The notes below the pieces were generated by a model, which searched no databases, was not told where the DNA came from, and worked only from the letters and a program-made list of their open reading frames with translations. From NCBI GenBank assembly GCA_025061735.1, contig JANXAU010000004.1, positions 1,643 to 65,642 of the forward strand: a stretch of 64,000 bases of DNA, given 5' to 3'. The position numbers were made by a program, and so were the translations under genes. Position 1 is the stretch's first letter. Every line of letters begins with the position of its first letter. Below are positions 4,723 through 50,134 of the stretch, in pieces. The DNA comes from Candidatus Bipolaricaulota bacterium. GTDB taxonomy: Bacteria; Bipolaricaulota; Bipolaricaulia; RBG-16-55-9; DRXL01.

Positions 4723-4728
4723 CTTCGA

Positions 4729-7982: not shown

Positions 7983-7990
7983 TCACTGCT

Positions 7991-9555: not shown

Positions 9556-10302
9556 ATGGCAGGGCATTCGAAATGGGCGAATATTAAATATCGCAAAGAG
9601 CGACAAGACGCGGCCAAGATGAAGATCTTCTCCAAGCTGGCCAAGGAGATCATGATGGCCGCGAAGGCCGGCTCTCCCGATCCTGCGCAGAATATCGCGT
9701 TGGCCAACGCGATCGAGAGGGCGCGCGCGGCCAACGTCCCCAAGGAGAACATCGAGCGGGCGATCAAGCGCGCCACCGGCGAGCTGCCCGGCGCGCAATA
9801 CGAAGAGATCTTCTACGAGGGCTATGGCCCCTACGGCGTAGCCGTCATGGTGCGCGTGGTGACCGATAACAGAAACCGAGCGGTCTCGGAGATCCGGCGC
9901 ATCTTTGAGCAGTACGGGGGCAACTTGGGCGGCTCGGTCGCGTGGCTCTTCACGCGGCGCGGCGTGATCACGCTCGACAAGAAGAAGATCGCGCAAGAGC
10001 GCGATGAGCTTCTGATGCGCGTGATCGATCTGGGCGTGGAGGATCTGCAAGAGAAAGACGGGGAGATCGAACTCTATTGCGAGCCTTCTCATCTGAAGGC
10101 CGTGCGCGAGGCGCTGGAGCGACAGGCCGTGCCCATCGAGCGCGCCGAGGTGCAGCTCGTTCCTCAAAACACCGTCCCGCTCACCGGCCCAGAGGCCGAA
10201 AAGTTCCTCAAATTCATGAGCGCGCTCGATGACCAAGAGGACGTCCAAGAGGTCTACGCCAACTTCGACATCCCCGAGGACGTAATGGATCGGCTCAGCT
10301 AA
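9556..10302 (+). CDS. yebC: YebC/PmpR family DNA-binding transcriptional regulator
   Basis: MAGHSKWANIKYRK is the hallmark YebC N-terminus. The start was moved to the internal ATG at 9556, because the ORF-track start at 9478 adds a non-conserved extension. Confidence 0.9.
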   Translation: MAGHSKWANIKYRKERQDAAKMKIFSKLAKEIMMAAKAGSPDPAQNIALANAIERARAANVPKENIERAIKRATGELPGAQYEEIFYEGYGPYGVAVMVRVVTDNRNRAVSEIRRIFEQYGGNLGGSVAWLFTRRGVITLDKKKIAQERDELLMRVIDLGVEDLQEKDGEIELYCEPSHLKAVREALERQAVPIERAEVQLVPQNTVPLTGPEAEKFLKFMSALDDQEDVQEVYANFDIPEDVMDRLS

Positions 10303-10311
10303 TCTCTCTCG

Positions 10312-10833
10312 ATGGGAAAGGGGGCGATCGGTGTGTTCAGATGGTGGGTGTTTGTATGGGTGCTGGGGATGGGATGGGGGTGCTTCGGCTCTGAGGCGCT
10401 GGCGCAGACGGTGGGCGTGGGGGTTCGAGTTCCCGTAGAGATGAACGACCTCTACTTTGGGCGCCTCACCGATAATCTAGAACTCTTCGGGCAGGTGGCG
10501 TTGGGGCCGTTGGCAGCAGAGGCGGGCGTGCTGGTGCCGTTCTCGCCGTTGGTGGCAGGGGCAGCGTTGAAGTTCTCGTTCTTCCAGATGAGCTATCACA
10601 GCGACGAGGGGGAGCTGCTTATGGAGATCCCCTTCTTCATCGGCGGGGGCGGGGTGCTCATCTCGTTTGGGGAGCTGGCCTTTACGACTTATATCGTCAA
10701 AGCGGGGATGGAGTGGCGTTGGGTGGGGCTGCCGCTGCGGGTGCTGGTGGAGGGGGGCTGGCAGTCGCTGATTGTGGGGCTGCAAGGGACGGGTGGGGTC
10801 TTTTTGAGTCTAGGGCTGCGGTGGGATCTGTGA
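10312..10833 (+). CDS. Small secreted beta-rich hypothetical protein (paralog A)
   Basis: It has a signal peptide (FRWWVFVWVLGMGWGCFGSEALAQ). It is Gly/Val/Leu-rich with alternating hydrophobic residues and ends ...LGLRWDL. Confidence 0.5.
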   Translation: MGKGAIGVFRWWVFVWVLGMGWGCFGSEALAQTVGVGVRVPVEMNDLYFGRLTDNLELFGQVALGPLAAEAGVLVPFSPLVAGAALKFSFFQMSYHSDEGELLMEIPFFIGGGGVLISFGELAFTTYIVKAGMEWRWVGLPLRVLVEGGWQSLIVGLQGTGGVFLSLGLRWDL

Positions 10834-11258
10834 AGGGCGTCATCGCGGTTTGTGTGTGTGTGCTCTGCTTCTCGGTGGTGGGGAGCGCGCAGCCGTTGGG
10901 GATGGGGATCAAAGTACCGTTACAAGCGTTTGTCTCGCTGGGGTTCACGGAGAACTTGTTGCTGGAGTTGGGGCTGCCGATTGGGCTGCGGGTAGGGGGG
11001 GTAGCTGCTGTAGCCGATGTCAAGCTCTTCTTCGCGTCGATAACGGCCGTGCAGCTTCTCTGGAGGCCGTTTGTGGGGGTGGGGGTTTCGGCCCGCCTGC
11101 GCGGCTCGGCGACGGAGATCATGATCGCGGCCACTTTCTTTGCGCTGATTGGCATAGAAGTGCCGCTCTCGCCGTTCAGCCTCTTTGGGGAGGCCTGGCT
11201 CTATGCGGGGGAGCGCCTGCCGGGGATCTTCAGCTTGGGGGTGCGCTACGACTTCTAA
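10830..11258 (+). CDS. Small secreted beta-rich hypothetical protein (paralog B)
   Basis: The GTG start overlaps the stop of paralog A (GTGA). It has a signal peptide (VKGVIAVCVCVLCFSVVGSAQP). Its architecture and C-terminus (GVRYDF) resemble paralog A, suggesting a tandem duplication. Confidence 0.5.
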   Translation: MKGVIAVCVCVLCFSVVGSAQPLGMGIKVPLQAFVSLGFTENLLLELGLPIGLRVGGVAAVADVKLFFASITAVQLLWRPFVGVGVSARLRGSATEIMIAATFFALIGIEVPLSPFSLFGEAWLYAGERLPGIFSLGVRYDF

Positions 11259-11260
11259 CG

Positions 11261-11455
11261 ATGGCCATCGAAACGCTTGCCGAGCGACTTGCCGCTAGCG
11301 AAACCTGGATCAGCCTCTGGCGTGATACCAGCGAAAACGAGATCTATCTCCAATACGGATACGTAGATATCAGCATGCCCGTGGAGGACTTTGAAGACCT
11401 TCTTGAAGCGATGCTCGAAGCGCGTCAGAAGCTCAAGGGGAACAGACGCGCCTAA
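11261..11455 (+). CDS. Small hypothetical protein (64 aa)
   Basis: The ATG at 11261 follows the upstream stop, and composition is coding-like (MAIETLAERLAASETWISLWRDTSENEIYLQYGYVDISMPVEDFEDLLEAMLEARQKLKGNRRA). A competing minus-strand ORF (11255-11578) seemed less plausible. Confidence 0.3.
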   Translation: MAIETLAERLAASETWISLWRDTSENEIYLQYGYVDISMPVEDFEDLLEAMLEARQKLKGNRRA

Positions 11456-12879
11456 AGCCCCGCAAAGAACTCGCTCAATAGCATCAATAATTTCAGACAT
11501 GCTCCCTCCACGGGCGCTACGGCTTGCGCTAGCGATATAGACACAAAGCTCAGCCCCAGCAGCGCCACCCCACCCCAAAGCGCCACCGCCACCAACGGCA
11601 CGATCACTAGATTTCCTAAAAGCGCTTCCCAGAGATAGACGCGCTGAAAATGAGAGAAGAGCACCGGTGCTACAAAGCCCTGTGCCCCCAGCGAGACCAG
11701 CACAAAGAGCGTCACGCTACGAGCGATCTTCTTCCATGCCGGCTCAGCGCGCAAGGAGGGAGTAAGCCCCAAGCGCGGTTGCAGCCATGGCCACGCATAG
11801 AGCACCGATATCACAATCCCCAACGTTCCAGCAAAGCTGAGCTGAAAGCTCGCTTCAAAGAGCGCTTCGGGATCGTAGAGCAGTATCACAAAAGCAGCCG
11901 CAGCCAACGACTGCAACGGATCCGCCCAGCGCCTCAAGATCCAGCCGCGCTCGGCGCAAACGTACCCCAACGCCAAAAAGTAGAACATCAGCGTTGCGCG
12001 CACGAGGCTCGGCTCAAAACCAACGATGAGCAGATACATAAAGACAAAGGGCGTAGCGAACAGATAGAGCCGCGCAAGGCTGAAGCCCCACAGACTCAGA
12101 GCCAGTAGCCCCAAGATCATCGCCAGATTGGCCCCCGACGCGACCAAGACATGGGCGACCCCCGCCTCGCGAAAACCGCGCTCGATCTCCCTCGACAAGC
12201 TCTCGCGCTCACCAAAGAGCAAGGCCTTCAACAGACCGCTATGCTCTGGGGACAGCAACTGCTCTAGACGCCTAAAGAGATCTTCTCTCAGATCGTATCC
12301 CCACTGCAGTAGCTTATTCCCCTGGCGATGGCTTAGAATCTCGATCTCGCTAGAGCGCCACACGCGCACCACGCCCCAGATCTCGCGTCGTCGCAAATAG
12401 TCACGATAGTCAAAGCCCGAAAAATTTCTAGGTGCCCGCGGCGCGGCTCGCACGAGCACCTCGTCGCCATAAGAGATCTTCAATGGCTTATCTTGGCTAC
12501 GATGCTCGTAGAAGACTTGGAGCCTGCCCGGCGCGTCGGAGAGCTGCAAGACGAAGCGCGTGCGCTCCGGCCCACGGTCGGGATAGCTGATCACGATGCC
12601 GCGAACCGGCCAATACCGATCGGCGTAGCGATAGAACTGCTCCACAGGAAATCGCGCGTTGAGATAGAGAGCCGCACCCCCACTGACCAAGACGAGCACC
12701 AGCAAGAACGCAGCTCTCTTCGTCTGCGCTCTCCAAACGCATACAGACCAGCCTATCGCCGCCGGCAGCGCCACGGCCCCCCACAACGGCCACGAGAGCA
12801 CCCCCTCGCTCAGACGCCCTACTAAAATGCCTAACGCTAAAGCGATCGCTGCCCACACGATGGGTCTACGACGTCGCAT
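11452..12879 (-). CDS. ComEC/Rec2-family competence membrane protein (DUF4131 + competence domain, no MBL domain)
   Basis: It is polytopic (many transmembrane helices). N-terminal segments precede a periplasmic OB-like region (RFPVEQFYRYADRYWPVRGIVISYPD), then the ComEC channel-domain pattern. At 475 aa it is too short to include the beta-lactamase domain. Confidence 0.7.
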   Translation of the reverse strand: MRRRRPIVWAAIALALGILVGRLSEGVLSWPLWGAVALPAAIGWSVCVWRAQTKRAAFLLVLVLVSGGAALYLNARFPVEQFYRYADRYWPVRGIVISYPDRGPERTRFVLQLSDAPGRLQVFYEHRSQDKPLKISYGDEVLVRAAPRAPRNFSGFDYRDYLRRREIWGVVRVWRSSEIEILSHRQGNKLLQWGYDLREDLFRRLEQLLSPEHSGLLKALLFGERESLSREIERGFREAGVAHVLVASGANLAMILGLLALSLWGFSLARLYLFATPFVFMYLLIVGFEPSLVRATLMFYFLALGYVCAERGWILRRWADPLQSLAAAAFVILLYDPEALFEASFQLSFAGTLGIVISVLYAWPWLQPRLGLTPSLRAEPAWKKIARSVTLFVLVSLGAQGFVAPVLFSHFQRVYLWEALLGNLVIVPLVAVALWGGVALLGLSFVSISLAQAVAPVEGACLKLLMLLSEFFAGL

Positions 12880-19137: not shown

Positions 19138-19214
19138 CGGGATGTGGCGCAGCCTGGTAGCGCACACGCTTGGGGTGCGTGGGGTCGCGGGTTCAAATCC
19201 CGCCATCCCGACCA
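19138..19214 (+). tRNA. tRNA-Pro (anticodon GGG)
   Basis: It is 77 nt. The acceptor stem is CGGGATG/CATCCCG, the D-arm GCGCAGCCTGGTAGCGC, the anticodon stem CACGC/GCGTG with loop TTGGGGT (anticodon GGG, G37), the T-arm GCGGGTTCAAATCCCGC, and the 3' end ACCA. Confidence 0.9.
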
Positions 19215-39655: not shown

Positions 39656-40690
39656 ATGAGAGTCTGTCTCTATTTAGAAGCCGCGGAGATGGTGGCCAAA
39701 TCCGGCTTTAGAACGGCGTTCGAGCACCAGCGCCGCGCGCTGCAGAGCGCCGGCGTGGAGGTCGTGGACGACCCCGCGCGCGACGATTATGACTTGCTGC
39801 ATCTGCACTTCTTTGGCCCCAAGTCGCTCTTCTATCTCAAGCGCGCCCGGCGTCTGGGCATCAAAGTGATCGCGCACGCGCACAGCATCGGCGCGCACGA
39901 CTTCGAGGACAGCTTTACGCTCTTCAACTCCATCTCCGGGCTGTATGAAAAATATCTCTATTATTTTTACGAATCGAGCGATGCGGTGATAACATGCTCC
40001 CAGTACGCCCGCGAGCAACTCCAAGCCCAAGGGATCTCCAAGCCCATCTTCGTCGTCAGCAACGCCGTAGATCGTCAGAAGTTCAAGTTCGACTTAGAAA
40101 AACGTCGCCACTATCGCGAGCTGTTGCAATTGAAGCGCTTCACGGTCTTCAGCGCGGGCAACGTCATCCCGCGCAAGGGGATCTTAGACTTCTTAGAAGT
40201 CGCACGGCGGCTCCCAGAGCTGGATTTTGTCTGGTTCGGGCACCTGTGGCCCAAGTTTATGACGTTCTATCCCGAGATGCACAAAGCTTTAGAAACTAAG
40301 CCCCCGAATGTGAAGATGCCCGGCTTTGTGGTAGATACGCCCGCGGCGTTTTCGGCCGGCGATCTCTGTTTTCTCCCGTCGTTTCGAGAGAACCAGCCGA
40401 TGGTCTTGCTGGAGGCGCTCTCGCTGGGGCGCCCGCTGGTCGTGCGCGACATCCCGGAGTATCGGGGCTGGCTCAAAGAGGGCGTCAACGCGCGCTTGGG
40501 CAGCTCTGTCGAGGAGTTCGTCGCGCAGATTCGCACACTTGCGCAAGACCCCCGCGAATGGCAGCGGCTCTCGTTGGCCGCCGAAGCGCTGGCCGAGCAG
40601 AGCAGCCTCCCCGTTGTGGGCCGTCGCTTGAAAGAGCTGTACGCGCTTATCCTAGAAGGAGCTGCCGTGTCGGCTTCTTCGTCTCTATGA
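39656..40690 (+). CDS. Glycosyltransferase family 4, paralog 2 (tandem duplicate)
   Basis: MRVCLYLEAAEMVAKSGFRTAF... aligns by eye with paralog 1 along its full length (HLH.FGP, KVIAHAHS.GA.D, VFSAG.VIPRKGI.DF, VWFGHLW). The start was placed at the internal ATG at 39656. Confidence 0.8.
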   Translation: MRVCLYLEAAEMVAKSGFRTAFEHQRRALQSAGVEVVDDPARDDYDLLHLHFFGPKSLFYLKRARRLGIKVIAHAHSIGAHDFEDSFTLFNSISGLYEKYLYYFYESSDAVITCSQYAREQLQAQGISKPIFVVSNAVDRQKFKFDLEKRRHYRELLQLKRFTVFSAGNVIPRKGILDFLEVARRLPELDFVWFGHLWPKFMTFYPEMHKALETKPPNVKMPGFVVDTPAAFSAGDLCFLPSFRENQPMVLLEALSLGRPLVVRDIPEYRGWLKEGVNARLGSSVEEFVAQIRTLAQDPREWQRLSLAAEALAEQSSLPVVGRRLKELYALILEGAAVSASSSL

Positions 40691-41442
40691 AGCTCTCTAT
40701 CGCGATCCCTGCCCACAACGAAGAGGCGTTTATCACAGACGCGCTGCGCTCTCTAGACGCGCAAGAGTTTTCAGGAGAGCTTGAGATCATCGTCTGTCTC
40801 AACGCGTGCACCGACAAGACCGAAGAGATCGTGCGTGCTTGGGCGACGGCATCGCGTTGGCCGATGGTGATCGTGCACGAGCCGCGCAAGGGCGTGAGCT
40901 GGGCGCGCCAGACGGCGTTTATGAGCGCTTGTGGGGAGATCATCGCCAGCGCCGACGCCGACGCTTCTTATCCCCCTCGCTGGGCGGCGCGCATCGCCGA
41001 GGCTTTCGCCCAAGATGCAAATTTAGTGCAAATCTACGGGCCAGTGCGCTTACGCGACTTCACGGGGCCAGGGCGCTGGTTCTGGAAGTACGCCCATCCC
41101 GTCATGAACGATCTGTTTACACTGATGGGGCGTTGGCTGGGCTGGCACAACGTGATTGGCTCTAACTTTGCGGTGCGGCGCAGCGCGTTCTTAGCCGTTG
41201 GGGGCTTTGATACAAAGCTCAAAGCGCTCGAAGACCACGAGATCACGCGGCGCTTGCGCCAGCTCGGTACCGTGCGCTACGACCCCCAATTGGTGGTCTA
41301 TGCCTCCGCGCGCCGCTATAATCGCTTAGGCTTTTGGCGGACTGTCTTGTTTTACACGCGCAACGCGCTCAAGGCGTTTGTGCTCAAGCGCGAGACCGAA
41401 GACTTAGAAAACGTGAGCGAACGCTCGAAGGAGACAACATGA
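40687..41442 (+). CDS. Glycosyltransferase family 2
   Basis: MKLSIAIPAHNEE...LDAQ...DADASYPP gives GT-A DXD-like motifs. The start was placed at the internal ATG at 40687, overlapping the stop of the previous gene. Confidence 0.75.
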   Translation: MKLSIAIPAHNEEAFITDALRSLDAQEFSGELEIIVCLNACTDKTEEIVRAWATASRWPMVIVHEPRKGVSWARQTAFMSACGEIIASADADASYPPRWAARIAEAFAQDANLVQIYGPVRLRDFTGPGRWFWKYAHPVMNDLFTLMGRWLGWHNVIGSNFAVRRSAFLAVGGFDTKLKALEDHEITRRLRQLGTVRYDPQLVVYASARRYNRLGFWRTVLFYTRNALKAFVLKRETEDLENVSERSKETT

Positions 41443-43073
41443 ACCGACGCGTGTTGGTCATCGCCCTCGACGGGGCGACTTTGGATCTCATCGAGCCGTG
41501 GGCCAGAGAGAATCGCCTGCCCCATCTGAAAGCGCTCCTAGACAGGGGCGTATCGGCTCGCCTGGAGAGCACCCTCCCCCCGATTACGGGAGCCGCGTGG
41601 ACGAGCTTTCAAACGGGGGTGCAGCCGGGGCGACACGGGCACTTCGATTGGCTCACGCGCGATGAGCGAAGCTACAAGCTCGTCCCGATCAGCTCGCGCT
41701 CTATCCCCCAAGAGACCTTGTGGGAGTATCTCAGTCGCTACGGCAAGCGCGTCGGCGTGATGGGCGTGCCGGTCAGCTATCCCGCTCGCCCCGTGAACGG
41801 CTTTCTGCTGACAGACTTGCTGACGCCCTCAGACGAAAACTACGCTTCTCCCCCAGAACTCAAAGACGAGATCGAGCGAGCCGTCGGCCCCTACCCCGTC
41901 ATGCCCCAACATTGGAAGGGGCGCTATGCCGCCCGCCAATGGCTGGGCCACCTCAAAGCGAATATTGAGCGCCGCTTACAAATCGCGCGCTATCTGATGC
42001 GCACTCGCCCCTGGGACTTCTTTATGCTGCACATTATGGAGACCGATTCGGTGCAGCATCAGATGTGGCATCTGTTAGATGGCGTGAAGCGTCCGCGCTA
42101 TCACGGCGGGTGGGTCAGGGGCAATCCCATCTTGGAGATCTATCAGCACGCCGACGCTGCGGTTGGAGAACTCCGGCGTGAGCTTTCAGAGCAAGACACG
42201 CTCTTGGTCATCTCCGATCACGGCTTTGGCCCGCTTTATTATAATATCTATCTGAACTGCTGGCTCTACCAAGAGGGCTATTTGAAACTCAAGAGCGATC
42301 TGGCAACGCGCTTGAAATGGCTCTGCTGGAAGAGCGGGCTGACTCCGGCGAACCTCTACGTCTGGCTAGACAGGCTGGGCGTCTTGGGATGGGGGTCGCA
42401 ATTGCGACACGCGGCCATGCACGAACTCTTCGGGCGGTTCTTCTTGTCCATGCAGAATATTGATTGGCCCAAGACTCAAGCATACTCGCACGGCAACGTT
42501 GGACAGATCTATTTGAATCTGCGAGGGCGCGAGCCGCAGGGCTGCGTCGCTCCTGAGAGTGCACACTCTCTGATCGAAGAGATCGCTGCCAAGCTCAAGG
42601 AGCTGCGCAATCCCCTCTCCGGTGAACGGCTCTTTGCCCAGATATATCGCAAAGAAGAAGTCTATCACGGCGAGTCTTTGTCTCGTGCGCCGGAGCTGAT
42701 CCTAGTCCCCCAAGAGGGCGCGATGGCGGTGGGGACTACCGAGTTTATAGATAATAAAATCGTGGGATGGACGTATGCCGGATCGGGGTGGCATCGGATG
42801 GAGGGGGTCTTCATCGCCGCGGGGGAGAACATCTGCAAAGCCCAGGGCTTTGTCTCGAGCTTACAGATCACAGATCTCTTCCCGATCATCGTGACGGCGT
42901 TGGAGTTGCCCGTGCCGGCGGGCTTGGACGGGCGCGTCCCGGCGGGGCTCTTTCGTGAGAAGAGAACGGGCGAGTTGGTCGCTCAGCCCCGTCGCGGTCG
43001 CGATTCCCAAAGACCCGACGCCCAATGGGAAGAGGAGATTCGCCGGCGTTTGAGAAACTTGGGATACGTTTAG
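41439..43073 (+). CDS. Alkaline-phosphatase-superfamily type I phosphodiesterase / nucleotide pyrophosphatase-like protein
   Basis: RVLVIALDGATLDLI...LPPITGAAWTSFQTG matches the PF01663-like metal-binding N-terminus (DG, T nucleophile). Downstream DHGFG is present. The start at 41439 overlaps the GT2 stop (ATGA). Confidence 0.7.
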   Translation: MNRRVLVIALDGATLDLIEPWARENRLPHLKALLDRGVSARLESTLPPITGAAWTSFQTGVQPGRHGHFDWLTRDERSYKLVPISSRSIPQETLWEYLSRYGKRVGVMGVPVSYPARPVNGFLLTDLLTPSDENYASPPELKDEIERAVGPYPVMPQHWKGRYAARQWLGHLKANIERRLQIARYLMRTRPWDFFMLHIMETDSVQHQMWHLLDGVKRPRYHGGWVRGNPILEIYQHADAAVGELRRELSEQDTLLVISDHGFGPLYYNIYLNCWLYQEGYLKLKSDLATRLKWLCWKSGLTPANLYVWLDRLGVLGWGSQLRHAAMHELFGRFFLSMQNIDWPKTQAYSHGNVGQIYLNLRGREPQGCVAPESAHSLIEEIAAKLKELRNPLSGERLFAQIYRKEEVYHGESLSRAPELILVPQEGAMAVGTTEFIDNKIVGWTYAGSGWHRMEGVFIAAGENICKAQGFVSSLQITDLFPIIVTALELPVPAGLDGRVPAGLFREKRTGELVAQPRRGRDSQRPDAQWEEEIRRRLRNLGYV

Positions 43074-43082
43074 GAGAGCGGT

Positions 43083-44135
43083 GTGCGTCGTCGTTCTTTA
43101 GTTGTGCTTTCGATCTTAGTGGGCGCAGGGCTGTTAGGGGGTATTCTCTATTATATCGGCCCAGAGCGCGTCTGGGAGCAGATTGTGCGCCTGGGGGTTT
43201 GGGGATATCTTTCGCTGGTAGCGATCGCGATCCTGACGATGGTCTGCTGGACTTCGAGTTGGTGGGTGATCTTGAGGGCGTACGGGGTGCGCGTGAGCTG
43301 GTGGACGACGTGGTGGGCCCGGCTGAGCGGCTTTGCCATTACGTATCTGACGCCCTCGATGTATTTTGGGGGGGAACCGGCGAGCGTCTTTCTCATCGTC
43401 AAGGAGCAAGAGGGCGCGCACCGCGCCACGCGCGTCGTGGCTACGCTCTTGGTTGCTAAACTTTTAGAGGGTCTATCGCTGCTGGCATTTGTCTATCTGG
43501 GATTCTATTACGCAGCAGCGACGAAGCTTCTGCCCTTGGACGACATGGGCGTGATGATCGTGGGGAATCTGATCTTCGCGCTCTTTGTCGCCTTAGCGGC
43601 GATCAATTTTATGGGAGGGCGTCTGTGGCTGACGCGGCTGTTGGGCTGGCTCAAGCGTCACCTGCCGTGGAAGCACGCGCTGGGGGTCGCCGAGGCCAAG
43701 ATGCGCGAAGTCGAAGAGGACGTTCATAACGCGTTTCAAGAGCATCAGCGCGCGACGTGGACGGCCTTCTTGCTCACGCTGCTGGCGACGTTCTTGCTCT
43801 ATCTGCGTCCTCAAGTCTTCTTTCTGTTTGCGCTGCGGGCGTTTATGCCCATCTCGCATCTTTCGATCGCGTATGCGCTCTTCGTGCTCTTGGGGGTCTT
43901 CTTCTGGCTGACGCCGGGGGGGATGGGGGTTTTAGAGGGGGGCATGGTAGGCATCTTCAGCGTGGTCTCGGTCTTGAGCTTGAAAGATCACCAATGGCTG
44001 CCGATTCCCTACGAAAGTGCGGTGGCGTTTGCGCTCACGCTCAAGTCGATAGAGTTTCCGTTGGTGGGGCTGGGGCTGTTCTATCTGATCCGAGTGGGCT
44101 TCTTGAAGGTGCCCAAGCCCCCCTTGCGGCGCTAG
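43083..44135 (+). CDS. Flippase-like (UPF0104 / lysyl-PG-synthase TM-region-like) membrane protein
   Basis: Eight or more transmembrane helices are present. The N-terminus MRRRSLVVLSILVGAGLLGGILYYIGPERVWEQIVRLGVWGYL is typical of the family. It sits at the end of the glycosyltransferase operon. Confidence 0.6.
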   Translation: MRRRSLVVLSILVGAGLLGGILYYIGPERVWEQIVRLGVWGYLSLVAIAILTMVCWTSSWWVILRAYGVRVSWWTTWWARLSGFAITYLTPSMYFGGEPASVFLIVKEQEGAHRATRVVATLLVAKLLEGLSLLAFVYLGFYYAAATKLLPLDDMGVMIVGNLIFALFVALAAINFMGGRLWLTRLLGWLKRHLPWKHALGVAEAKMREVEEDVHNAFQEHQRATWTAFLLTLLATFLLYLRPQVFFLFALRAFMPISHLSIAYALFVLLGVFFWLTPGGMGVLEGGMVGIFSVVSVLSLKDHQWLPIPYESAVAFALTLKSIEFPLVGLGLFYLIRVGFLKVPKPPLRR

Positions 44136-44204
44136 ACGTATTTTCACGCCATCCCGACCTCCGATACATAATATCTCCATAGTCTTGAAGTACGCTCTCC
44201 GTGC

Positions 44205-44225
44205 CACTCAGGGAGAACCTGAGTG
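44205..44225 (+). promoter_or_regulatory. Perfect 8-bp stem/5-nt loop hairpin in the leader of the PepSY-RR-HK operon
   Basis: CACTCAGG-GAGAA-CCTGAGTG lies 27 nt upstream of the PepSY start and is followed by the RBS AAAGGAG. There is no U-tract, so it is not a canonical terminator. Confidence 0.3.
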
Positions 44226-44251
44226 AGTCTCCAACAAAGGAGTGATCCTCC

Positions 44252-44689
44252 ATGAACGTGAGAAAGCTCTCACGGACGATAGGTCTTTTGGTTTTGGCGT
44301 TCGTTCTGCTGGCGGGCGTGGCATATTACTATGCCTCGGCCCAAGACCCCAATGCCCCGGCCTCCGATCAGCCGCGGCCTCCGGAGATCGTGGGCAGTGT
44401 GAAAGCCCCCAGTCGCATCGCGACTCTCGTGAGTATGGCCAAGATTGATCTGTCCAAGGCGATAGAAGCCGCGACAGCGCGCCAGAGCGGGACTGTGTTT
44501 GCCGCTCATCTGGGCGAGCGCAACGGCTACGTCGTCTATCAAGTTGCGATCTTGACCGCCGATGGTAACTCGGTCTTGGTGACGGTGGACGCCGGCGACG
44601 GAAAAGTCTTAAGCGTCGTCCAGCTCCCGATGGGAGGGCGCTTTGGACACTTCGGGCCGATGGGACCGGGCAAGCGCGGCGGGCGCTGA
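44252..44689 (+). CDS. PepSY-domain secreted protein
   Basis: It has a signal/transmembrane N-terminus. The PepSY-like core is KIDLSKAIEAATARQSGTVFAAHLGERNGYVVYQVAILTADGNSVLVTVDAGDGKVL. It sits directly upstream of a two-component system. Confidence 0.7.
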   Translation: MNVRKLSRTIGLLVLAFVLLAGVAYYYASAQDPNAPASDQPRPPEIVGSVKAPSRIATLVSMAKIDLSKAIEAATARQSGTVFAAHLGERNGYVVYQVAILTADGNSVLVTVDAGDGKVLSVVQLPMGGRFGHFGPMGPGKRGGR

Positions 44690-44790
44690 ACCGACCGCCT
44701 TCATCATCCTCCCCATCTTCCCCTAGGGAGGGCAGGGAAGCCGAAACACGGCTTCCCTGCTCCCCTTTGTGTTATAATAATACAATCCCC

Positions 44791-45486
44791 GTGAAACCGA
44801 AGATTCTCATCGTTGAGGACGAAGAACAGCTCGCGCAAGCGATTGCGCTCTACTTGCGCAATGCGGGCTTTCTCACGGAGATCGCCCTCGACGGCCAAAC
44901 GGCGCTAGAAGCCGTCCAGAAAGAACCGCCGGACTTGATCGTGCTCGATCTGATGCTGCCCAAGGTAGACGGGTGGGAGGTCTGCCATCGCATCCGGAAA
45001 GACTCGCAGATCCCGATCATCATGCTGACGGCGCGCGTGGGCGAGCCTGCGCGGATCCAAGGGCTAGAGCTGGGAGCCGACGATTATCTGGAAAAGCCCT
45101 TCAGCTTGAGAGAGCTGGTCGCCCGCATTCAGGCCGTCTTGCGACGCTCCGCCAAAGCCGCTCCACGTCATCTCGTCAACGGGGCCCTCGTCGTAGATGT
45201 AGAGAAGCGCGAGGTGCGCTACGGGCACAAACAGATCGATCTGACGCGCAGCGAATTTGATCTATTGGTGACGCTGATGCAGCATCCGGGACGGGTCTTC
45301 TCACGGTTACAGCTTCTAGAAGCGATTCAGGGAACGACCGCTGATAGCTTTGATCGCGCGATTGATTCGCACATCAAGAACTTGAGAAAAAAGATAGAAC
45401 CCGACCCGAAGCACCCTCAACTGATTCTGACCGTCTATGGCGTGGGGTATCGCTTTCGCAAGCCGCCCGAGGGGGGCCAAGAATGA
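44791..45486 (+). CDS. OmpR-family response regulator
   Basis: A GTG start follows a TATAAT box (44773-44778). The receiver domain has KILIVEDEE, a DLIVLDLMLP phospho-Asp and a KPF motif. The winged-helix output domain has GYRF at the C-terminus. Confidence 0.9.
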   Translation: MKPKILIVEDEEQLAQAIALYLRNAGFLTEIALDGQTALEAVQKEPPDLIVLDLMLPKVDGWEVCHRIRKDSQIPIIMLTARVGEPARIQGLELGADDYLEKPFSLRELVARIQAVLRRSAKAAPRHLVNGALVVDVEKREVRYGHKQIDLTRSEFDLLVTLMQHPGRVFSRLQLLEAIQGTTADSFDRAIDSHIKNLRKKIEPDPKHPQLILTVYGVGYRFRKPPEGGQE

Positions 45487-46847
45487 GAGCTTTCTGGCAC
45501 CGACTCCCGTTTAAGTATCAGCTATTAGGGGCGCTGGCGCTGGTGACCCTGGTGGCCGTGAGCGTTGTCTATCTCTTGGCTGATCAAGCGATCCAGACGC
45601 GCTTTACGGAATTTCGGGGGCGGGCCGGAGCTGCCCAAGCGCGGCACCTGCGCTACTTGCTCTCGGAATACTACGCCCGCTACGGCAGTTGGCAGGGCCT
45701 GCACCAGCTCTTGAACGCTCCGGGGAGAGACCAACGCTTGGAGCCCCCCTTGGTGATTGCAGATGCTGAAGGGGTCATTGTAGTCAGTGACGAAGAGCAG
45801 CTGTTGGGCCAGCAGCTCTCCCCCGAAGACCTAGCGCTAGGGATGCCTATCTGGTACAGGGGCGAGCGCGTAGGTACGCTCTTCGTGCGCCCGCCGCCTC
45901 GGGTGCTGACGCCGCTGGAGCAGCAGTTTGCGCAGTCTGTGCAAAGCGCGATCTTGCTTGCTGGTGGTGTAGCGCTGATCGTAGCGTTTGTCTTGGGGAC
46001 GGTGTTGATGCGCCGTCTCGCGCAGCCCTTGACGGAATTGCGCAACGCCGCAGAACAGATCGCCCAAGGACACCTAGAGACCCGGGTCAACGTCTCAGAG
46101 AGCGACGAGCTGGGGCGCTTGGGGCAGGCGTTCAATGCGATGGCCCAGAGCTTGCACCGTTCGGAGCACTTGCGACGCCAGATGGTGCTCGACATCGCCC
46201 ATGAGCTTCGCAACCCGTTGATGATTCAGCAGAGCCATTTGGAGCTGTTGCTCGACCGCGTGACGGAGCTGACGCCGCAACAGATCGAGACGATCTATCA
46301 GCAGAATCTGCTGTTGGGGCGCTTGGTGCGCGATTTGCAACTGCTTGCGCTGGCCGATGCCGGCGAGCTGCCTGTCGAGCGCGCTCCGCTCTCGTTAGCC
46401 GAAGTCCTTCAGAGCGTCTCAGATCAAATGGCTCCGGCCCTCCAAGAGAAAGAGATAACGCTGCAGATGAGGGGTTCATCTCAAGAGCTGATCGTCTATG
46501 GGGATCGCCAGCGCTTGGAACAAGTCTTGATGAATTTGCTAGAGAACGCGCGGTGCTATACGCCCATCGGTGGCACGATCAGAGTATCTGCGACTGCTCA
46601 GGGTAGTGAAGCACTCGTCTCGGTCGAAGACAGCGGACCGGGGATCTCCCCCGAAGATCTGCCCCATCTGTTTGATCGCTTCTATCGTGGGGACAAATCC
46701 CGCGCGCGGGCCAGCGGCGGGACGGGGCTAGGTCTGGCGATCGCTAAAGCGCTCGTAGAGGCGCACAACGGCAAGATCTGGGCCGAGAACCTTCCCAACG
46801 GAGGAGCACGATTCTCGTTCACCCTGCCCCTAGCTCTCAAAAGCTGA
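45483..46847 (+). CDS. Sensor histidine kinase (transmembrane sensor, HAMP, HisKA, HATPase_c)
   Basis: Two transmembrane helices flank a periplasmic loop. The H-box is IAHELRNPL, the N-box LLENARCYT, the G-boxes DSGPGI and GGTGLGLAI. It overlaps the response-regulator stop. Confidence 0.9.
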   Translation: MRAFWHRLPFKYQLLGALALVTLVAVSVVYLLADQAIQTRFTEFRGRAGAAQARHLRYLLSEYYARYGSWQGLHQLLNAPGRDQRLEPPLVIADAEGVIVVSDEEQLLGQQLSPEDLALGMPIWYRGERVGTLFVRPPPRVLTPLEQQFAQSVQSAILLAGGVALIVAFVLGTVLMRRLAQPLTELRNAAEQIAQGHLETRVNVSESDELGRLGQAFNAMAQSLHRSEHLRRQMVLDIAHELRNPLMIQQSHLELLLDRVTELTPQQIETIYQQNLLLGRLVRDLQLLALADAGELPVERAPLSLAEVLQSVSDQMAPALQEKEITLQMRGSSQELIVYGDRQRLEQVLMNLLENARCYTPIGGTIRVSATAQGSEALVSVEDSGPGISPEDLPHLFDRFYRGDKSRARASGGTGLGLAIAKALVEAHNGKIWAENLPNGGARFSFTLPLALKS

Positions 46848-46898
46848 CAGCAGATTTCAGTTGTCAGCTTCACGTCAAAGAGTGCGAATAAGAACTAC

Positions 46899-46927
46899 TT
46901 GTCTTAGGCAGCGCGCACGGCTATAAT
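46899..46927 (+). promoter_or_regulatory. Sigma70-type promoter for the copper-monooxygenase operon
   Basis: TTGTCT (46899-46904), a 17-nt spacer, then a perfect TATAAT (46922-46927), 24 nt upstream of the ATG at 46951. Confidence 0.45.
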
Positions 46928-46950
46928 GGCCTCCAACGCGAGGTGAGGCT

Positions 46951-48390
46951 ATGAAAAAATGGAGCGTGGTTGGGCTTGTTGCGCTGTTGGGCATCGCCGG
47001 AGGGCTGTCGGGATACTTGATAGCGGCCAGCAGTCAGGCTCAGACTCCCGTTACGTACTACAGTCATATCGCGGGCATACTGGAGCGCAATTGTCTCAAT
47101 TGTCATAGTGCCGGGGGCGTGGCGCCCTTCTCGCTGGAAGACCCCCAGAGGGTCGTGCGCATGGCCGCGGCGATCAAATACGTCGTCGAGAACGATATTA
47201 TGCCCCCGTGGCCGCCCGGCCCCCTCTCGCCCCCGATGCTCGACGAACGGAGGCTCTCGCCCGAAGAGAAAGAGCTGATCTTGCGCTGGGTGGCCTCCGG
47301 AGCGCCCCTGGGCGATCCCAGTCAGCGCCCCCCAAGCTCGCCTCCTCCGCGCCCCAGCGAACGCACCCCCGATCGCGTCGTCATCATGGACCCGCCCTAT
47401 CTGCCCAATAAAGCCCGTTCCGATGACTATCGCTGCTTCTTGCTCGATCCCCAACTAGAACGCGATACGCTCGTCACGGGCTATCGGGTCTATCCGGGGC
47501 AGAAGAGCTTGGTGCATCACGTGATTCTCTTTGTCATCGGCCCCGATGCCGTATCGGCTGCCGAGGCGCGCGACCGCGCCGAGCCGGGTCCGGGCTGGAC
47601 GTGCTACGGCGGCCCCGGCCTCAGCGGTGTTGGAGCGAACGCGCTCTCTAACAGCCTGGGCTTCTGGGTCCCTGGCACCGATGGCACCGACTTCCCCCAC
47701 AAGAGCGCCAGGCTCTTGCGGGCCGGCTCCCGAATCGTAATGCAAGTGCATTATCACACCGCGCACGTCACCCAGAACTCTTACGACGCTACCAAAGTTC
47801 ATCTCTTCTTAGCCCCTGAAGGCGCCTCGCTCATCCCCCTCCAAGGGATGATCCTCGCCGCTCCCGTTGAGATCCGCTGCCCGGGCCCCTATCCCAGCGA
47901 TCCCAACGATCCGTGCCACCGCGAAGCGGCGATGCGCCGCGCCGAACCCGACTTCGCCCTACTCTCTGACGCGATCCATCAGATCTGCGGCACGACTGTG
48001 CAAGAGTACCTCCGGCGCGACATCGGCGACGGCAGCGCGCAACGCACCCAGTGCGACTTCCGCGTGCGCCAGAACGGCTTGGCGTTGGGGGTCATCAGCC
48101 ACATGCACATGCGCGGCACGGCCACGCGCATCGAGCTGAACCCCGACACCCCACAAGCCAAGATTCTGTTAGATATCCCGCGCTGGGACTTCAACTGGCA
48201 GGGGAACTATTGGTTCCAAGAGCCGATCCCCCTCAAGGCCGGGGATCGCGTGCGCATCGTCTGCGTCTATGACAACAGCCGAGCTATTATGGGTCCAGAC
48301 CGTCAGATGGTGCCGCCGCGCTATATGATCTGGGGCGAGGGCACGTTAGACGAGATGTGCTTGGGAGGGGTAGCGTTCATCCGACAGTGA
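46951..48390 (+). CDS. Secreted fusion protein: PSCyt1-type cytochrome c domain + copper type II ascorbate-dependent-monooxygenase-like (PHM/DBH-like) domains
   Basis: It has a signal peptide. CLNCHSAGGVAPFSL...IMPPWPP is CxxCH haem-binding plus the MPP motif of the planctomycete-type cyt c domain. His clusters match the PHM CuH/CuM layout (LVHHVILF, HYHTAH, SHMHMRG) with a downstream Met (LDEMCLGG). Confidence 0.65.
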   Translation: MKKWSVVGLVALLGIAGGLSGYLIAASSQAQTPVTYYSHIAGILERNCLNCHSAGGVAPFSLEDPQRVVRMAAAIKYVVENDIMPPWPPGPLSPPMLDERRLSPEEKELILRWVASGAPLGDPSQRPPSSPPPRPSERTPDRVVIMDPPYLPNKARSDDYRCFLLDPQLERDTLVTGYRVYPGQKSLVHHVILFVIGPDAVSAAEARDRAEPGPGWTCYGGPGLSGVGANALSNSLGFWVPGTDGTDFPHKSARLLRAGSRIVMQVHYHTAHVTQNSYDATKVHLFLAPEGASLIPLQGMILAAPVEIRCPGPYPSDPNDPCHREAAMRRAEPDFALLSDAIHQICGTTVQEYLRRDIGDGSAQRTQCDFRVRQNGLALGVISHMHMRGTATRIELNPDTPQAKILLDIPRWDFNWQGNYWFQEPIPLKAGDRVRIVCVYDNSRAIMGPDRQMVPPRYMIWGEGTLDEMCLGGVAFIRQ

Positions 48391-48409
48391 CAAGAAGGGA
48401 GGTGAGAGA

Positions 48410-48790
48410 ATGAGAAGGACGCTGGTGGGGTTGGCTTTTTTCGCGTTGGTGATGGGAACGGTCTACTCGCAGGACGACGCGCAGCAGCCGATGCCCCCGG
48501 GACTGCGAGCGATCTCGGTGACGGTCGATGGACAGTATATCTGGCTGCCCAGCACGATCATTCTCTACGCCGGCGAGACGGTGAGACTGCGCATTGAGAA
48601 TCAAGATCAGCTCACGCCCGAAGGGCACGGCTTCGCCATGCCGGGATTGTTGCCGGCCCCCATCGCCTTGCGCCCCGGCGAGGTCCGCGAGATAGAGTTC
48701 ACCCCCGAACGCCCCGGCGTCTATCGCTACTTCTGTCACCTTCACGGGGAGTTTCATCTCAGCGGCCAAGTCTTGGTCTTGAGCAGATAG
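48410..48790 (+). CDS. Cupredoxin-like small copper protein
   Basis: It has a signal peptide. The C-terminus YRYFCHLHGEFHLSGQVLV shows a cupredoxin-type Cys/His ligand cluster, with an upstream His (PEGHGF). It is 126 aa. Confidence 0.55.
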   Translation: MRRTLVGLAFFALVMGTVYSQDDAQQPMPPGLRAISVTVDGQYIWLPSTIILYAGETVRLRIENQDQLTPEGHGFAMPGLLPAPIALRPGEVREIEFTPERPGVYRYFCHLHGEFHLSGQVLVLSR

Positions 48791-48808
48791 TTCTCAAAAG
48801 GAGGGGTT

Positions 48809-49993
48809 ATGACGCGCCGAGAGTTTCTCGCAGTGAGCGGCGGAGTCGGAGCGGCTCTGCTCGTAGGCGGGCCAGAGCGGAACAGATCGTTGAGTGCGGC
48901 ACAACAGCCCATCCCCGGAAAAGAAGACATGATCGTTCACTCGATCAATCCCAGCATCTTGGAGACGAAGCTGCCCTATCTGAGATCCTTCATCACGCCC
49001 AATAAGCACTTCTACGTGCGCTCGCAATATCCGACGCCGACGATTGACTTGAGCAAATGGCAGCTCTCGGTCGAGGGCGAGGTCGAACGGACGCTGACGT
49101 TCAAATTCGACGATCTGAAGCAATTTGAAGAGGTGACCCTGACGACGTGGCTCCAGTGCTTTGGCAACGGGCGCTCGTTCTTCGTCCCTCGGGCTACGGG
49201 GACGCCTTGGCGCTACGGAGCGATTGGGCAAGCCGTCTGGAAGGGCATTCGCATGCGCGATCTCTTGCTAAGAGCAGGGCTGAAAGTGGGAGCCAAGCAC
49301 GTGGCCTCTCAAGGCTACGACGACCCGCCCGAAGGGGCCGAGCCGTTCATCCGCAGCATCCCCCTAGAAAAAGCGCTCGATCCCAACACGCTCTTGGTCT
49401 ACGAGATGAACGGCGAACCGTTGCCGCTGCTCAATGGCTATCCGTTGCGCTTGCTTGTCCCCGGCTGGGGCGGCTCAGCAAGCGTCAAATGGCTAAGAAG
49501 AATCATAGTCACCAAAGAGGAGTGGCCGGGGCGCTTCATGCAGCAGGCCTATCGCGTGCCGGTGATCCCCACCGAGCCAGGAGCGCGAGTCGACCCGCGC
49601 GATATGGTCGCGGCGACGCGCCAGCCCGTCAATTCGTTCTTCACTAGCCACGCTGGGGGCGAGACCCTCAAGGCCGGCGAGGTCGTGCTCACGGGGATCG
49701 CTTATTCAGGCGAGACCGGGATTGATCTCGTCGAGGTCTCGGTAGACGGCGGCAAGAGCTGGCAACCGGCGACGATCACGCAACCAAGACCGGGGACTCC
49801 CCCCGCCCAAGCCGTCTGGATGTGGCATCACTGGGAGTATCGCTGGCGAGCTACATCCGGCAAGCATACGCTCCTCTGCCGCGCCCGCGACTGGCTCGGC
49901 CGAACCCAGCCCACCCACCAACGCGACATCCCCTGGAACCCCCTAGGGTATAACTACAACGCCGTGCAGAGCATCGAAGTCACGGTAGAGTAG
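48809..49993 (+). CDS. Tat-exported sulfite-oxidase-family molybdopterin oxidoreductase
   Basis: MTRREFLAVSGGVGAALLV is a twin-arginine signal. The Mo-co binding core (TLTTWLQCFGNGRS...PWRYGAIGQAVWKG) contains the conserved Cys (CFGN). A C-terminal dimerisation domain is present. Confidence 0.8.
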   Translation: MTRREFLAVSGGVGAALLVGGPERNRSLSAAQQPIPGKEDMIVHSINPSILETKLPYLRSFITPNKHFYVRSQYPTPTIDLSKWQLSVEGEVERTLTFKFDDLKQFEEVTLTTWLQCFGNGRSFFVPRATGTPWRYGAIGQAVWKGIRMRDLLLRAGLKVGAKHVASQGYDDPPEGAEPFIRSIPLEKALDPNTLLVYEMNGEPLPLLNGYPLRLLVPGWGGSASVKWLRRIIVTKEEWPGRFMQQAYRVPVIPTEPGARVDPRDMVAATRQPVNSFFTSHAGGETLKAGEVVLTGIAYSGETGIDLVEVSVDGGKSWQPATITQPRPGTPPAQAVWMWHHWEYRWRATSGKHTLLCRARDWLGRTQPTHQRDIPWNPLGYNYNAVQSIEVTVE

Positions 49994-50077
49994 ACCGACA
50001 GATTCTAAACGGATGGACGGAGGAAGTCATGTCCTCCGTTCATCCGTGGTGCCGATCCCTTGGCCGATTCGTTTTAC

Positions 50078-50134
50078 TTGACAGCTTGGTTGGTCTTTGG
50101 TATATTATTAGCAGACTGATCAGGTGATTGCTAA
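50078..50134 (+). promoter_or_regulatory. Sigma70 promoter (TTGACA-17-TATATT) followed by a CIRCE inverted repeat (HrcA operator) overlapping the hrcA start
   Basis: TTGACA is at 50078-50083 and TATATT at 50101-50106. TTAGCA-gactgatcaggtgat-TGCTAA (50108-50134) has the CIRCE arm spacing (arms TTAGCAnnn/nnnTGCTAA, 15 nt between core hexamers). The ATG lies at 50134-50136. Confidence 0.7.

Follow-up and report, generated by a model that had tools for sequence, protein, structure and literature searches.

Gene content of the locus

The window (the whole stretch of 64,000 nucleotides that was analysed) carries six genes in series on the + strand (Table 1), and all six open reading frames were found where the original prediction had placed them, with the domains expected of them. 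They encode a PepSY-domain protein, a response regulator, a histidine kinase, a 479-aa protein in which a haem domain precedes a copper core, a small cupredoxin and a twin-arginine molybdoenzyme; the site proposed as a separate promoter for the 479-aa gene is likewise present.

Table 1. Genes and sequence features of the locus, with coordinates in the window
Feature	Position	Strand	Evidence or remark
Promoter-like site TTCACG-18-CATAAT, weak	44143-44172	+	5' of PepSY gene; 9/12 consensus positions; consensus match only
PepSY-domain protein, 145 aa	44252-44689	+	PF03413, E 9.1e-11, 42.4 bits vs cutoff 24
Stem-loop, strong	44725-44766	+	-40.1 kcal/mol, z -5.9
TATAAT box	44773-44778	+	Read from sequence
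OmpR/PhoB-type response regulator	44767-45486	+	Response_reg E 3.7e-30; Trans_reg_C E 1.8e-27
Sensor histidine kinase	45483-46847	+	HAMP, HisKA, HATPase_c; two predicted TM segments
Promoter-like site TTGTCT-17-TATAAT	46899-46927	+	10/12 consensus positions; 23 nt 5' of the 479-aa ORF
Cytochrome c / PHM-DBH-fold dicopper monooxygenase fusion (predicted), exported, 479 aa	46951-48390	+	
Cupredoxin, small, Sec-exported (predicted), 126 aa	48410-48790	+	PF13473, E 4.1e-10, 40 bits vs cutoff 27
SorA/SorT-type sulfite-oxidase-family molybdoenzyme, twin-arginine, 394 aa	48809-49993	+	PF00174 E 3.4e-56; PF03404 E 1.5e-13
16-bp perfect hairpin	50009-50047	+	3' of Mo-enzyme stop codon; -34.8 kcal/mol, z -3.76

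The PepSY gene and the two-component system

The PepSY protein, whose N-terminus is a hydrophobic anchor or signal and whose orthologue in the related locus L081 occupies the equivalent position, may form an envelope-facing sensor set with the regulator and the kinase. The arrangement recalls BaeSR or MtrAB-type envelope systems with a PepSY accessory, in that an OmpR-family regulator is paired with a HAMP-HisKA-HATPase kinase. Unlike those systems, however, every match here lies below its equivalog cutoff: the best NCBIfam matches of the regulator are MtrA, BaeR and CreB, all beneath their thresholds, and for BaeS_SmeS the kinase reaches 295.6 bits of the 500 required, so that no equivalog can be assigned. 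Nor does the sensor domain of the kinase show recognisable kinship with any named system. The kinase start overlaps the regulator stop by 4 nt, and the regulator itself, the L081 orthologue of which has 230 aa, probably begins at the GTG at 44791 rather than at the TTG at 44767.

The strong stem-loop lies downstream of the PepSY stop codon and ahead of the regulator gene, and is followed by CCCCUUUG; it has 14 pairs, 10 of them G-C, is listed as terminator-like, and folds better than every one of 200 shuffles. A hairpin with altered stem bases stands at the equivalent place in L081, a comparison of two sequences. The hairpin had been put forward as a possible regulatory RNA structure in the leader of the two-component operon, but its position is that expected of a PepSY terminator, with a -10 box after it, and it matches no Rfam family, the sole Rfam match across the window being one tRNA. 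Most simply, it is an intrinsic terminator or attenuator of the PepSY gene. The TATAAT box lies between this hairpin and the likely GTG start, is kept as CTATAATAC in L081, and on its sequence would act as a promoter.

A cytochrome c domain fused to a PHM/DBH-type dicopper core

The 479-aa protein is a bacterial relative of animal PHM, the catalytic core of PAM, and of dopamine beta-hydroxylase (DBH), with a fused cytochrome c domain. A signal peptide (residues ~1-30) is followed by a haem c domain (~35-120), a proline-rich linker (~120-140), a CuH domain (~141-305) with H189, H190 and H267, a family-specific helical insert (~306-370) with four invariant cysteines, and a CuM domain (~371-479) with H384, H386 and M469. 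The N-terminal domain has the CxxCH motif (C48-x-x-C51-H52), distal methionine (M84-P-P) and fold of a monohaem, class I-like c-type cytochrome. Its Pfam matches, to Haem_bd (PF14376) and Cytochrome_CBB3 (PF13442), are weak, and PSCyt1 (PF07635) was not matched at E <= 0.1; the cytochrome c call thus holds, but the PSCyt1 label originally attached to it does not.

For the copper core, the evidence is of several kinds. The protein itself falls short of both Pfam gathering scores (14.8 bits against 30 for PF01082, 18.9 against 23 for PF03712), so the proposed profile check fails for the query and succeeds for its relatives: homologues such as P0059 exceed both cutoffs (31.5 and 42.4 bits), and many more carry precomputed matches to the two families. 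Membership is therefore to be understood at family or superfamily level. Profile comparison agrees, with hhalign giving 97% probability against PHM and aligning the six copper ligands, Y79, Q170 and four disulfide cysteines with invariant family residues. The fold agrees as well, since the AF2 model (pLDDT 87.5) has the two-domain beta-sandwich core of copper type II monooxygenases and its best 31 Foldseek matches are all PHM or DBH. It is because passing homologues, profile comparison and fold concur that the protein is assigned to the PHM/DBH group, as predicted. The His and Met clusters likewise fall on the PHM ligands, with H189/H190 at H107/H108, H267 at H172, H384/H386 at H242/H244 and M469 at M314; all six are invariant in 38 homologues of 36-90% identity, in a layout above chance. 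The numbering of the PHM reference sequence used for this alignment fits the landmark residues given in publications, and two of its long segments also appear in tool output.

The likeness to PHM (PDB 1PHM, 1SDW) thus extends from the order and alignment of the CuH His3 and CuM His2Met sites to the Y79 and Q170 equivalents, the DEMC motif and four aligned disulfide cysteines, all kept in the family. Identity to PHM is nevertheless only 15-18%, and the differences are considerable. PHM lacks the N-terminal cytochrome c domain and proline-rich linker, the ~60-residue helical insert between domains with its four extra invariant cysteines, and the aromatic IPxWDFxWQ motif specific to the bacterial family. 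The protein described here is, moreover, bacterial and periplasmic, has no PAL partner, and would not be expected to use ascorbate as donor. Of the PHM residues that contact the peptide carboxylate, R240 is replaced by I382 and N316 by L471, while Y318 lies just beyond the aligned block; since the residues aligned with R240 and N316 are hydrophobic, a glycine-extended peptide is an unlikely substrate. Compared with DBH, tyramine beta-monooxygenase and MOXD1 (PDB 4ZEL), the protein has a c-type cytochrome as its additional domain in place of DOMON, and it lacks a dimerisation domain. By analogy with these enzymes, the natural reading of the fused haem c domain is that of a built-in electron donor; monooxygenase activity, a route from haem to CuH and the direction of electron flow would follow from the same analogy.

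Such proteins had been thought rare in bacteria. On the contrary, species-representative genomes contain 593 loci or more, clustering at 50% identity (E <= 1e-30) yields 1,724 clusters, and the family extends across many phyla, among them Deinococcota, Chloroflexota, Actinomycetota and Myxococcota. Architectures vary, with the cytochrome domain present, absent or joined by YceI, and clustering of neighbours across the family loci returned lineage-specific housekeeping genes only, with no conserved partner or substrate-related gene. No characterised bacterial member was found in the literature searched, in keeping with the original prediction on this point. The family is accordingly large, uncharacterised, already catalogued in databases and normally stands alone, and the 479-aa gene is one ordinary member of it.

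The cupredoxin and the molybdenum enzyme

The small cupredoxin was correctly recognised, PF13473 being passed. Its candidate copper ligands are H73, C109, H112 and H116; the first three are conserved, H116 takes the axial position in place of the Met of the His-Cys-His-Met set of a type 1 (blue) cupredoxin, and the pattern is kept in the orthologues of L081 and L092. Nitrosocyanin (1IBY) is its best solved relative (E 4.5e-6), and the Cys-x2-His...His loop aligns. The position of the nitrosocyanin Glu ligand is, however, His73 here, the spacing is C-x2-H-x3-H without Met, and the score of 23.9 stands far below the equivalog cutoff of 142.85.

The assignment of the last gene to the sulfite-oxidase family also stands. 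The protein has the twin-arginine motif MTRREFLAV at its N-terminus, like the Tat-type N-terminus of SorA from Starkeya novella, with which it aligns end to end (2BLF, E 4.1e-64 over residues 35-391), and it keeps the Cys that binds molybdenum and the Arg of QCxGNxR, the Arg of FxVR and the Tyr of AYR. The Arg and Tyr residues are those of the substrate site, and both the Mo-binding and the dimerisation domain are present (PF00174, PF03404). In the alignment, SorA His57 reads as Gln, and scores remain under the NCBIfam equivalog cutoffs (283 bits against 600 for SorA, 223 against 570 for SorT). The usual electron acceptor of SorA/SorT-type enzymes is a cytochrome c encoded alongside them (SorB, SorU), and Sinorhizobium meliloti co-encodes a pseudoazurin as well, its sorT / cytochrome c (SorU) / azu2 operon being a precedent for a sulfite dehydrogenase encoded with a cupredoxin (PMC3511301, PMC4760952). 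The present molybdoenzyme shares with sorT and azu2 the company of a small copper protein; unlike SorAB and SorT-SorU-Azu2, however, it has no dedicated small cytochrome c gene (SorB or SorU) in the three-gene unit, and the cupredoxin gene precedes the molybdenum gene.

Transcription and gene neighbourhood

Given the gaps of 19 nt between the monooxygenase and cupredoxin genes and 18 nt between the cupredoxin and molybdoenzyme genes, the lack of a terminator-like site in either gap (the only one on the + strand within 46951-49993, at 49155-49175, is inside the molybdoenzyme gene), and a strong hairpin only 3' of the last gene, the three genes are probably co-transcribed from the promoter-like site upstream of the monooxygenase. 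That 3' hairpin is kept in L081 and is likely the terminator of the unit. A genuine functional link would likewise be expected to show such tight co-transcription, with no cytochrome c gene set aside for the SorA-like enzyme.

The wider neighbourhood is another matter. No SorA-like enzyme or cupredoxin was detected within 10 kb of the monooxygenase in any of 80 genome loci, the cupredoxin search being a tblastn with the 126-aa query that may miss very divergent cupredoxins. Both genes are similarly absent beside monooxygenase relatives of 88%, 64%, 63%, 55%, 54% and 53% identity, and adjoin the monooxygenase only in L081, the locus of a 92% orthologue. In L089 (88%) and L088 (63%) the next gene after the monooxygenase is hrcA, whose promoter and operator can be aligned across the four loci compared. 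Conversely, four metagenome contigs (L090-L093) carry a cupredoxin (44%) ~40 nt upstream of an adjacent SorA-like gene (75-76%) without any monooxygenase; match identities are equal in all four, which may therefore stem from one lineage. The proposal of a self-contained periplasmic redox module thus fails on synteny and, unless evidence to the contrary appears, the three-gene module reflects a chance arrangement in one lineage.

A probable set of three separable units, and the alternatives

On balance the locus is probably best explained as three separable units joined in one narrow lineage: the sensor set, a stand-alone haem-copper monooxygenase and a portable cupredoxin-SorA cassette. The monooxygenase is regarded as stand-alone because it occurs at many loci with no conserved neighbours and variable architecture; the cassette is regarded as independent because none of the 80 loci has it, L088 and L089 run straight to hrcA, and L090-L093 have the pair by itself. 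The second unit would be a Sec-exported enzyme in which a monohaem cytochrome c is tethered by the proline-rich linker to a non-coupled dicopper core. Its haem may draw electrons one at a time from the electron pool of the periplasm and deliver them to CuH, a role that ascorbate has in animal PHM and DBH; from there they would reach CuM, where O2 would be activated and a C-H bond hydroxylated. In the third unit, the molybdoenzyme would oxidise sulfite to sulfate with the cupredoxin as likely electron acceptor, the cassette having presumably entered downstream of the monooxygenase gene, ahead of the hrcA promoter. Since co-transcription of the three genes looks likely, the monooxygenase and the cassette may share a lineage-specific electron link.

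Were that link to be the very function of the unit, sulfite electrons would pass through the SorA-like enzyme and the cupredoxin to the haem c of the fusion, so that sulfite either drives the monooxygenase or finds in the fusion its terminal acceptor. The short gaps, single promoter-like site and single terminator agree with this, as does the presence of just one cytochrome c in the unit, the N-terminal domain of the fusion, where a SorA/SorT-type enzyme would normally have such a partner; L081 retains the arrangement, and at a distant locus (L140) a cytochrome c-PHM homologue again neighbours a Mo-co_dimer gene. Yet the monooxygenase occurs without the pair in hundreds of genomes and the pair without the monooxygenase in L090-L093, so neither unit requires the other, and adjacency in one lineage after an insertion says little about coupling. 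Such an integrated function is consequently unlikely, albeit with some weight.

It is rather improbable that the PHM-like protein is an electron-transfer, oxidase or copper-handling protein instead of a substrate hydroxylase, for example a cytochrome c:O2 or reactive-oxygen-scavenging oxidoreductase, or a periplasmic copper buffer under two-component control. The loss of the R240 and N316 peptide contacts and the want of a conserved partner or substrate-related gene would suit such a role, and one locus interleaves three paralogues with the oxidative-damage genes DJ-1/PfpI and MsrB. Two-component systems do adjoin the gene in several lineages, but in only ~4-6 of ~85 loci, which by rough estimate is near chance, and the adjoining kinases share their catalytic core only (30% identity over 244 aa). 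Across a very broad family the two copper sites (with the CuM Met among their ligands), the equivalents of second-shell residues Y79 and Q170 and the framework of disulfides do not vary, which argues for an O2-activating catalytic core rather than a metal buffer. That the cupredoxin instead serves the haem or copper of the monooxygenase, with the molybdoenzyme as an unrelated passenger, is very improbable. The location of its gene between the other two suits either partner and so speaks for this reading, but the cupredoxin accompanies the SorA-like gene without the monooxygenase in L090-L093, and none was detected beside the monooxygenase in the 80 genome loci.

Implications

The significance attaches to the monooxygenase family as a whole and to nothing special to the window. 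In PHM and DBH, the textbook examples of non-coupled dicopper enzymes, the crossing of electrons from CuH to CuM is still debated, and a bacterial homologue with a predicted covalent haem c donor, possibly thermostable, would offer a spectroscopically visible point of electron injection for that step. More broadly, a large family for which no substrate has been found represents a sizeable gap in periplasmic oxidative chemistry. There is a slim but consequential prospect that the cassette is wired to the enzyme, from sulfite through the molybdoenzyme, cupredoxin and haem c to CuH, and that the PHM/DBH-type hydroxylases of this family, with an envelope component as substrate, are the first in bacteria to carry a cytochrome donor of their own; if true, this would be a periplasmic copper monooxygenase powered by an inorganic reductant, without ascorbate or NAD(P)H. 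As to the substrate, a lipid or isoprenoid is weakly suggested by the fusion of some members to YceI.

Identity of the 479-residue protein

The original prediction, that the 479-aa protein joins a cytochrome c to a PHM/DBH-like copper core, was right at the level of domains, because ligand alignment, fold match and profile evidence agree. Its identification required profile search, hhalign and fold search. In Pfam the protein falls below threshold for Cu2_monoox_C (18.9 bits, cutoff 23), for Cu2_monooxygen (14.8, cutoff 30), and for Haem_bd and Cytochrome_CBB3, and the predicted PSCyt1 assignment is lost, that family giving no match. Used as a single sequence in phmmer against the PDB, it draws just a weak cytochrome c match (E 0.11), and its C-terminal 104 residues alone draw none. 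Homology searching recovers more than 1,200 relatives, of which the majority carry PF01082 and/or PF03712 and some additionally PF13442.

In an alignment of 38 members (36-90% identity), C48-x-x-C51-H52, M84-P85-P86, H189-H190, H267, H384-x-H386 and M469 are invariant, as are eight cysteines. The AlphaFold2 model built from this alignment is confident (pLDDT 87.5, pTM 0.83), and its top 31 Foldseek matches in the PDB come without exception from human dopamine beta-hydroxylase or rat PHM (E ~1e-13 to 1e-14). At the sequence level the family profile finds both DBH (E 1.9e-6) and PHM (E 1.6e-5), and hhalign aligns the family to the rat PHM core with 97% probability over 244 columns. All six predicted copper ligands find their counterparts in that alignment: H189/H190/H267 fall on the CuH ligands H107/H108/H172, and H384/H386/M469 on the CuM ligands H242/H244/M314. 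Likewise, Y160 aligns to Y79, Q265 to Q170, and C162/C218/C438/C470 to C81/C126/C293/C315. The N-terminus, MKKWSVVGLVALLGIAGGLSGYLIAASSQAQ, resembles a Sec signal by prediction, and several homologues in the alignment have lipobox-like sequences. Sequence and model together identify a putative exported protein in which a full PHM/DBH-type dicopper core is joined to a cytochrome c, an architecture that naturally suggests the fused haem domain as electron donor.

There are clear departures from PHM. Of the residues with which PHM contacts the peptidylglycine carboxylate, R240 is replaced by I382 and N316 by L471, and Y318 falls just past the aligned block; the protein is predicted not to be a peptidylglycine hydroxylase. 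A family-specific helical insert (~306-370) with four invariant cysteines has no PHM counterpart, nor does an aromatic IPxWDFxWQ motif. Together with a W412/F414/W416 cluster, the insert would form a pocket. Set against the characterised PHM/DBH enzymes, the protein is a new variation on an established type of copper monooxygenase.

Features of the window and of related loci
Locus	Feature	Position	Strand	Details
Window	tRNA-Pro(GGG)	19138-19214		
Window	envelope-related genes	40558-44135		
Window	PepSY protein	44252-44689	+	PF03413 E 9e-11 (Pfam)
Window	stem-loop	44725-44766		-40.1 kcal/mol, z -5.9
Window	OmpR-type response regulator	44767-45486	+	Pfam/NCBIfam; listed TTG start
Window	TATAAT box	44773-44778		
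Window	histidine kinase	45483-46847	+	HAMP-HisKA-HATPase; top NCBIfam match BaeS-like, under cutoff
Window	promoter-like site	46899-46927		TTGTCT-17-TATAAT
Window	cytochrome c / PHM-DBH-like fusion	46951-48390	+	479 aa
Window	cupredoxin	48410-48790	+	PF13473 40 bits (cutoff 27)
Window	sulfite-oxidase-family molybdoenzyme	48809-49993	+	Oxidored_molyb E 3e-56; Mo-co_dimer E 1.5e-13
Window	perfect hairpin	50009-50047		16 bp, z -3.76
Window	hrcA promoter region	50078-50133		TTGACA-17-TATATT, 11/12 matches, TG extension
L083	three tandem cyt c-PHM paralogues	7065-12731		472, 472, 476 aa
L085	DnaJ-domain gene	9528-9968		
L090	pyruvate phosphate dikinase gene with intein	2219-5863	-	1,214-aa product
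L140	cyt c-PHM / Mo-co_dimer juxtaposition	59-445 and 1043-2533		3' end of Mo-co_dimer-domain gene

A large bacterial family

The protein belongs to a large bacterial family already catalogued, and the view that such enzymes are rare in bacteria is contradicted on two counts. With each species represented by a single genome, at least 593 loci are confirmed, those listed spanning Deinococcales, Thermaceae, Gaiellales, Chloroflexota, Myxococcota, other Actinomycetota, Gemmatimonadota and Vicinamibacteria. Exhaustive scanning of 1.84 billion cluster representatives with HMMER recovers 1,724 proteins when the cutoff is E <= 1e-30 and 5,650 when it is E <= 1e-10. Cultured hosts with a homologue include Calidithermus roseus, Nannocystis pusilla and Archangium gephyra. 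Databases name them 'monooxygenase', 'c-type cytochrome' or 'hypothetical protein', and literature searches found no characterised bacterial PHM/DBH homologue. Cyt c-PHM is the commonest architecture, others being YceI-cyt c-PHM, insertion-bearing versions and PHM-only. Three proteins of ~800 aa (P0091, P0093, P0095) carry a YceI-like (polyisoprenoid- or lipid-binding) domain N-terminal to the cytochrome c and copper domains, and one of 374 aa (P0040) is entirely without the cytochrome domain. Interest attaches to the whole family and not to the window locus.

Genomic context of the monooxygenase gene

Comparative genomics gives no support to the proposed three-gene redox module of monooxygenase, cupredoxin and molybdoenzyme. 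The original prediction had itself named a lack of synteny in other genomes as refuting, and beyond one close orthologue the neighbours are not syntenic. When each window protein was searched by tblastn against 80 genome loci with flanks of up to 10 kb per side, the monooxygenase was found in all 80, and the SorA-like molybdoenzyme gene and the cupredoxin in none. Among the contigs of the closest relatives, the full PepSY-regulator-kinase-monooxygenase-cupredoxin-Mo-hrcA order is kept only in L081, which holds a 92% orthologue. Relatives at 64%, 54% and 53% identity have neighbourhoods unrelated to the window's, and in Calidithermus roseus (55%) the regulator-kinase pair 5' of the gene differs from that of the window. 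In L089 (a 'Candidatus Acetothermia' MAG, 88%) and L088 (63%), hrcA-grpE-dnaK-dnaJ follows the monooxygenase gene directly. Given that the hrcA promoter and CIRCE-like operator can be aligned across the window, L081, L088 and L089, the interposition of the cupredoxin-Mo pair between monooxygenase gene and hrcA promoter is limited to the window and L081; most simply, the pair would have been inserted there. Elsewhere the two families were found side by side just once, in L140, where a 27%-identical cyt c-PHM homologue is convergent to a truncated Mo-co_dimer gene ~600 nt away, a single and weak counter-example to the independence of cassette and monooxygenase.

Clustering of neighbours across the 80 loci yielded solely lineage-specific housekeeping genes, the genuine clusters being glycosyltransferase, FtsH, ABC ATPase, methylmalonyl-CoA mutase and LexA; naive ORF calling also gave antisense artefacts in high-GC loci (cluster 1, for example). 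In three separate lineages the monooxygenase gene has chaperone-related genes nearby. The window lineage has hrcA-grpE-dnaK-dnaJ directly downstream, L085 has a DnaJ-domain gene, and four Actinomycetota variants without the cytochrome domain (L063, L072, L076, L079) have hrcA 4-6 kb upstream. This link was set aside as probably coincidental. A two-component system immediately adjoins the gene in Calidithermus (L086), Polyangium (L038), a Deinococcales MAG (L053, divergent) and the window lineage, but as a family-wide partner it was rejected: the frequency of such systems beside the gene (~4-6 of ~85 loci) is by rough estimate near chance for genes so common, the kinases are alike in their catalytic core only, and L088 has no kinase 5' of the gene. 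In L083, DJ-1/PfpI and SelR (MsrB) genes separate the last two of the three tandem paralogues and a sulfatase lies upstream, an arrangement that may hint at a role related to oxidative damage.

The cupredoxin-molybdoenzyme cassette

A reverse search of metagenome contigs with the molybdoenzyme found four (L090-L093) with a SorA-like gene 75-76% identical and a 44%-identical cupredoxin ~40 nt upstream; phosphoglucomutase, PPDK and DUF4139 genes flank the pair. Match identities are equal in all four, which may represent one lineage. None carries the monooxygenase, which argues that the cupredoxin-Mo pair is a unit of its own. The intein in the dikinase gene of L090 is indicated by LAGLIDADG_3 and Hint_2 matches.

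The molybdoenzyme, with an N-terminal MTRREFLAV motif, gives an end-to-end alignment to Starkeya SorA (2BLF, E 4e-64), in which the Mo-ligand Cys and Arg of QCxGNxR, the Arg of FxVR and the Tyr of AYR are conserved. For the NCBIfam equivalogs SorA and SorT it scores under the cutoffs. Among solved structures the cupredoxin is closest to nitrosocyanin, a red-copper protein (E 4.5e-6), whose Glu ligand position is His here. The cupredoxin's candidate ligands H73, C109, H112 and H116 (C-x2-H-x3-H, no axial Met) form an unusual set, which orthologues with 90% and 44% identity share. In S. meliloti, sorT shares an operon with the genes for cytochrome c SorU and a pseudoazurin (azu2); the two were proposed as SorT acceptors, and SorU was confirmed later (PMC3511301, PMC4760952). 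On this precedent, the cupredoxin would most plausibly be the acceptor of the SorA-like enzyme.

Transcription of the locus

The six predicted plus-strand genes agree in placement with the ORF listing, and the predicted promoter-like site before the monooxygenase gene is present. The gaps on either side of the cupredoxin gene are 19 and 18 nt, neither holds a terminator-like site, and a perfect hairpin stands 3' of the Mo gene. The three genes are likely co-transcribed from that promoter, which leaves room for a possible lineage-specific electron link. Beyond them, a CIRCE-like inverted repeat, TTAGCAGACT-N7-GGTGATTGCTAA, lies 3' of the hrcA promoter and overlaps the hrcA start; promoter and repeat are kept in L081, L088 and L089.

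The strong stem-loop between the PepSY and regulator genes had been proposed as a regulatory RNA leader. This was rejected: no Rfam family matches it, and its position is terminator-like, beginning 36 nt past the PepSY stop codon. After it come CCCCUUUG and then the TATAAT box, which the regulator's listed start overlaps. An alternative GTG at 44791 is the likely start, its product matching the 230-aa L081 orthologue, and would leave the leader very short or missing. In L081 the equivalent place again carries a hairpin, its stem bases altered, together with the same -10-like box; this compares two sequences, too few for covariation. The simplest reading is that the hairpin is the terminator or an attenuator of PepSY, with the promoter of the regulator after it.

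The window has a single tRNA-Pro(GGG). The envelope-related genes 5' of PepSY encode a glycosyltransferase of family 2, a type I phosphodiesterase/nucleotide pyrophosphatase and an LPG_synthase_TM-domain protein; they are syntenic in L081.
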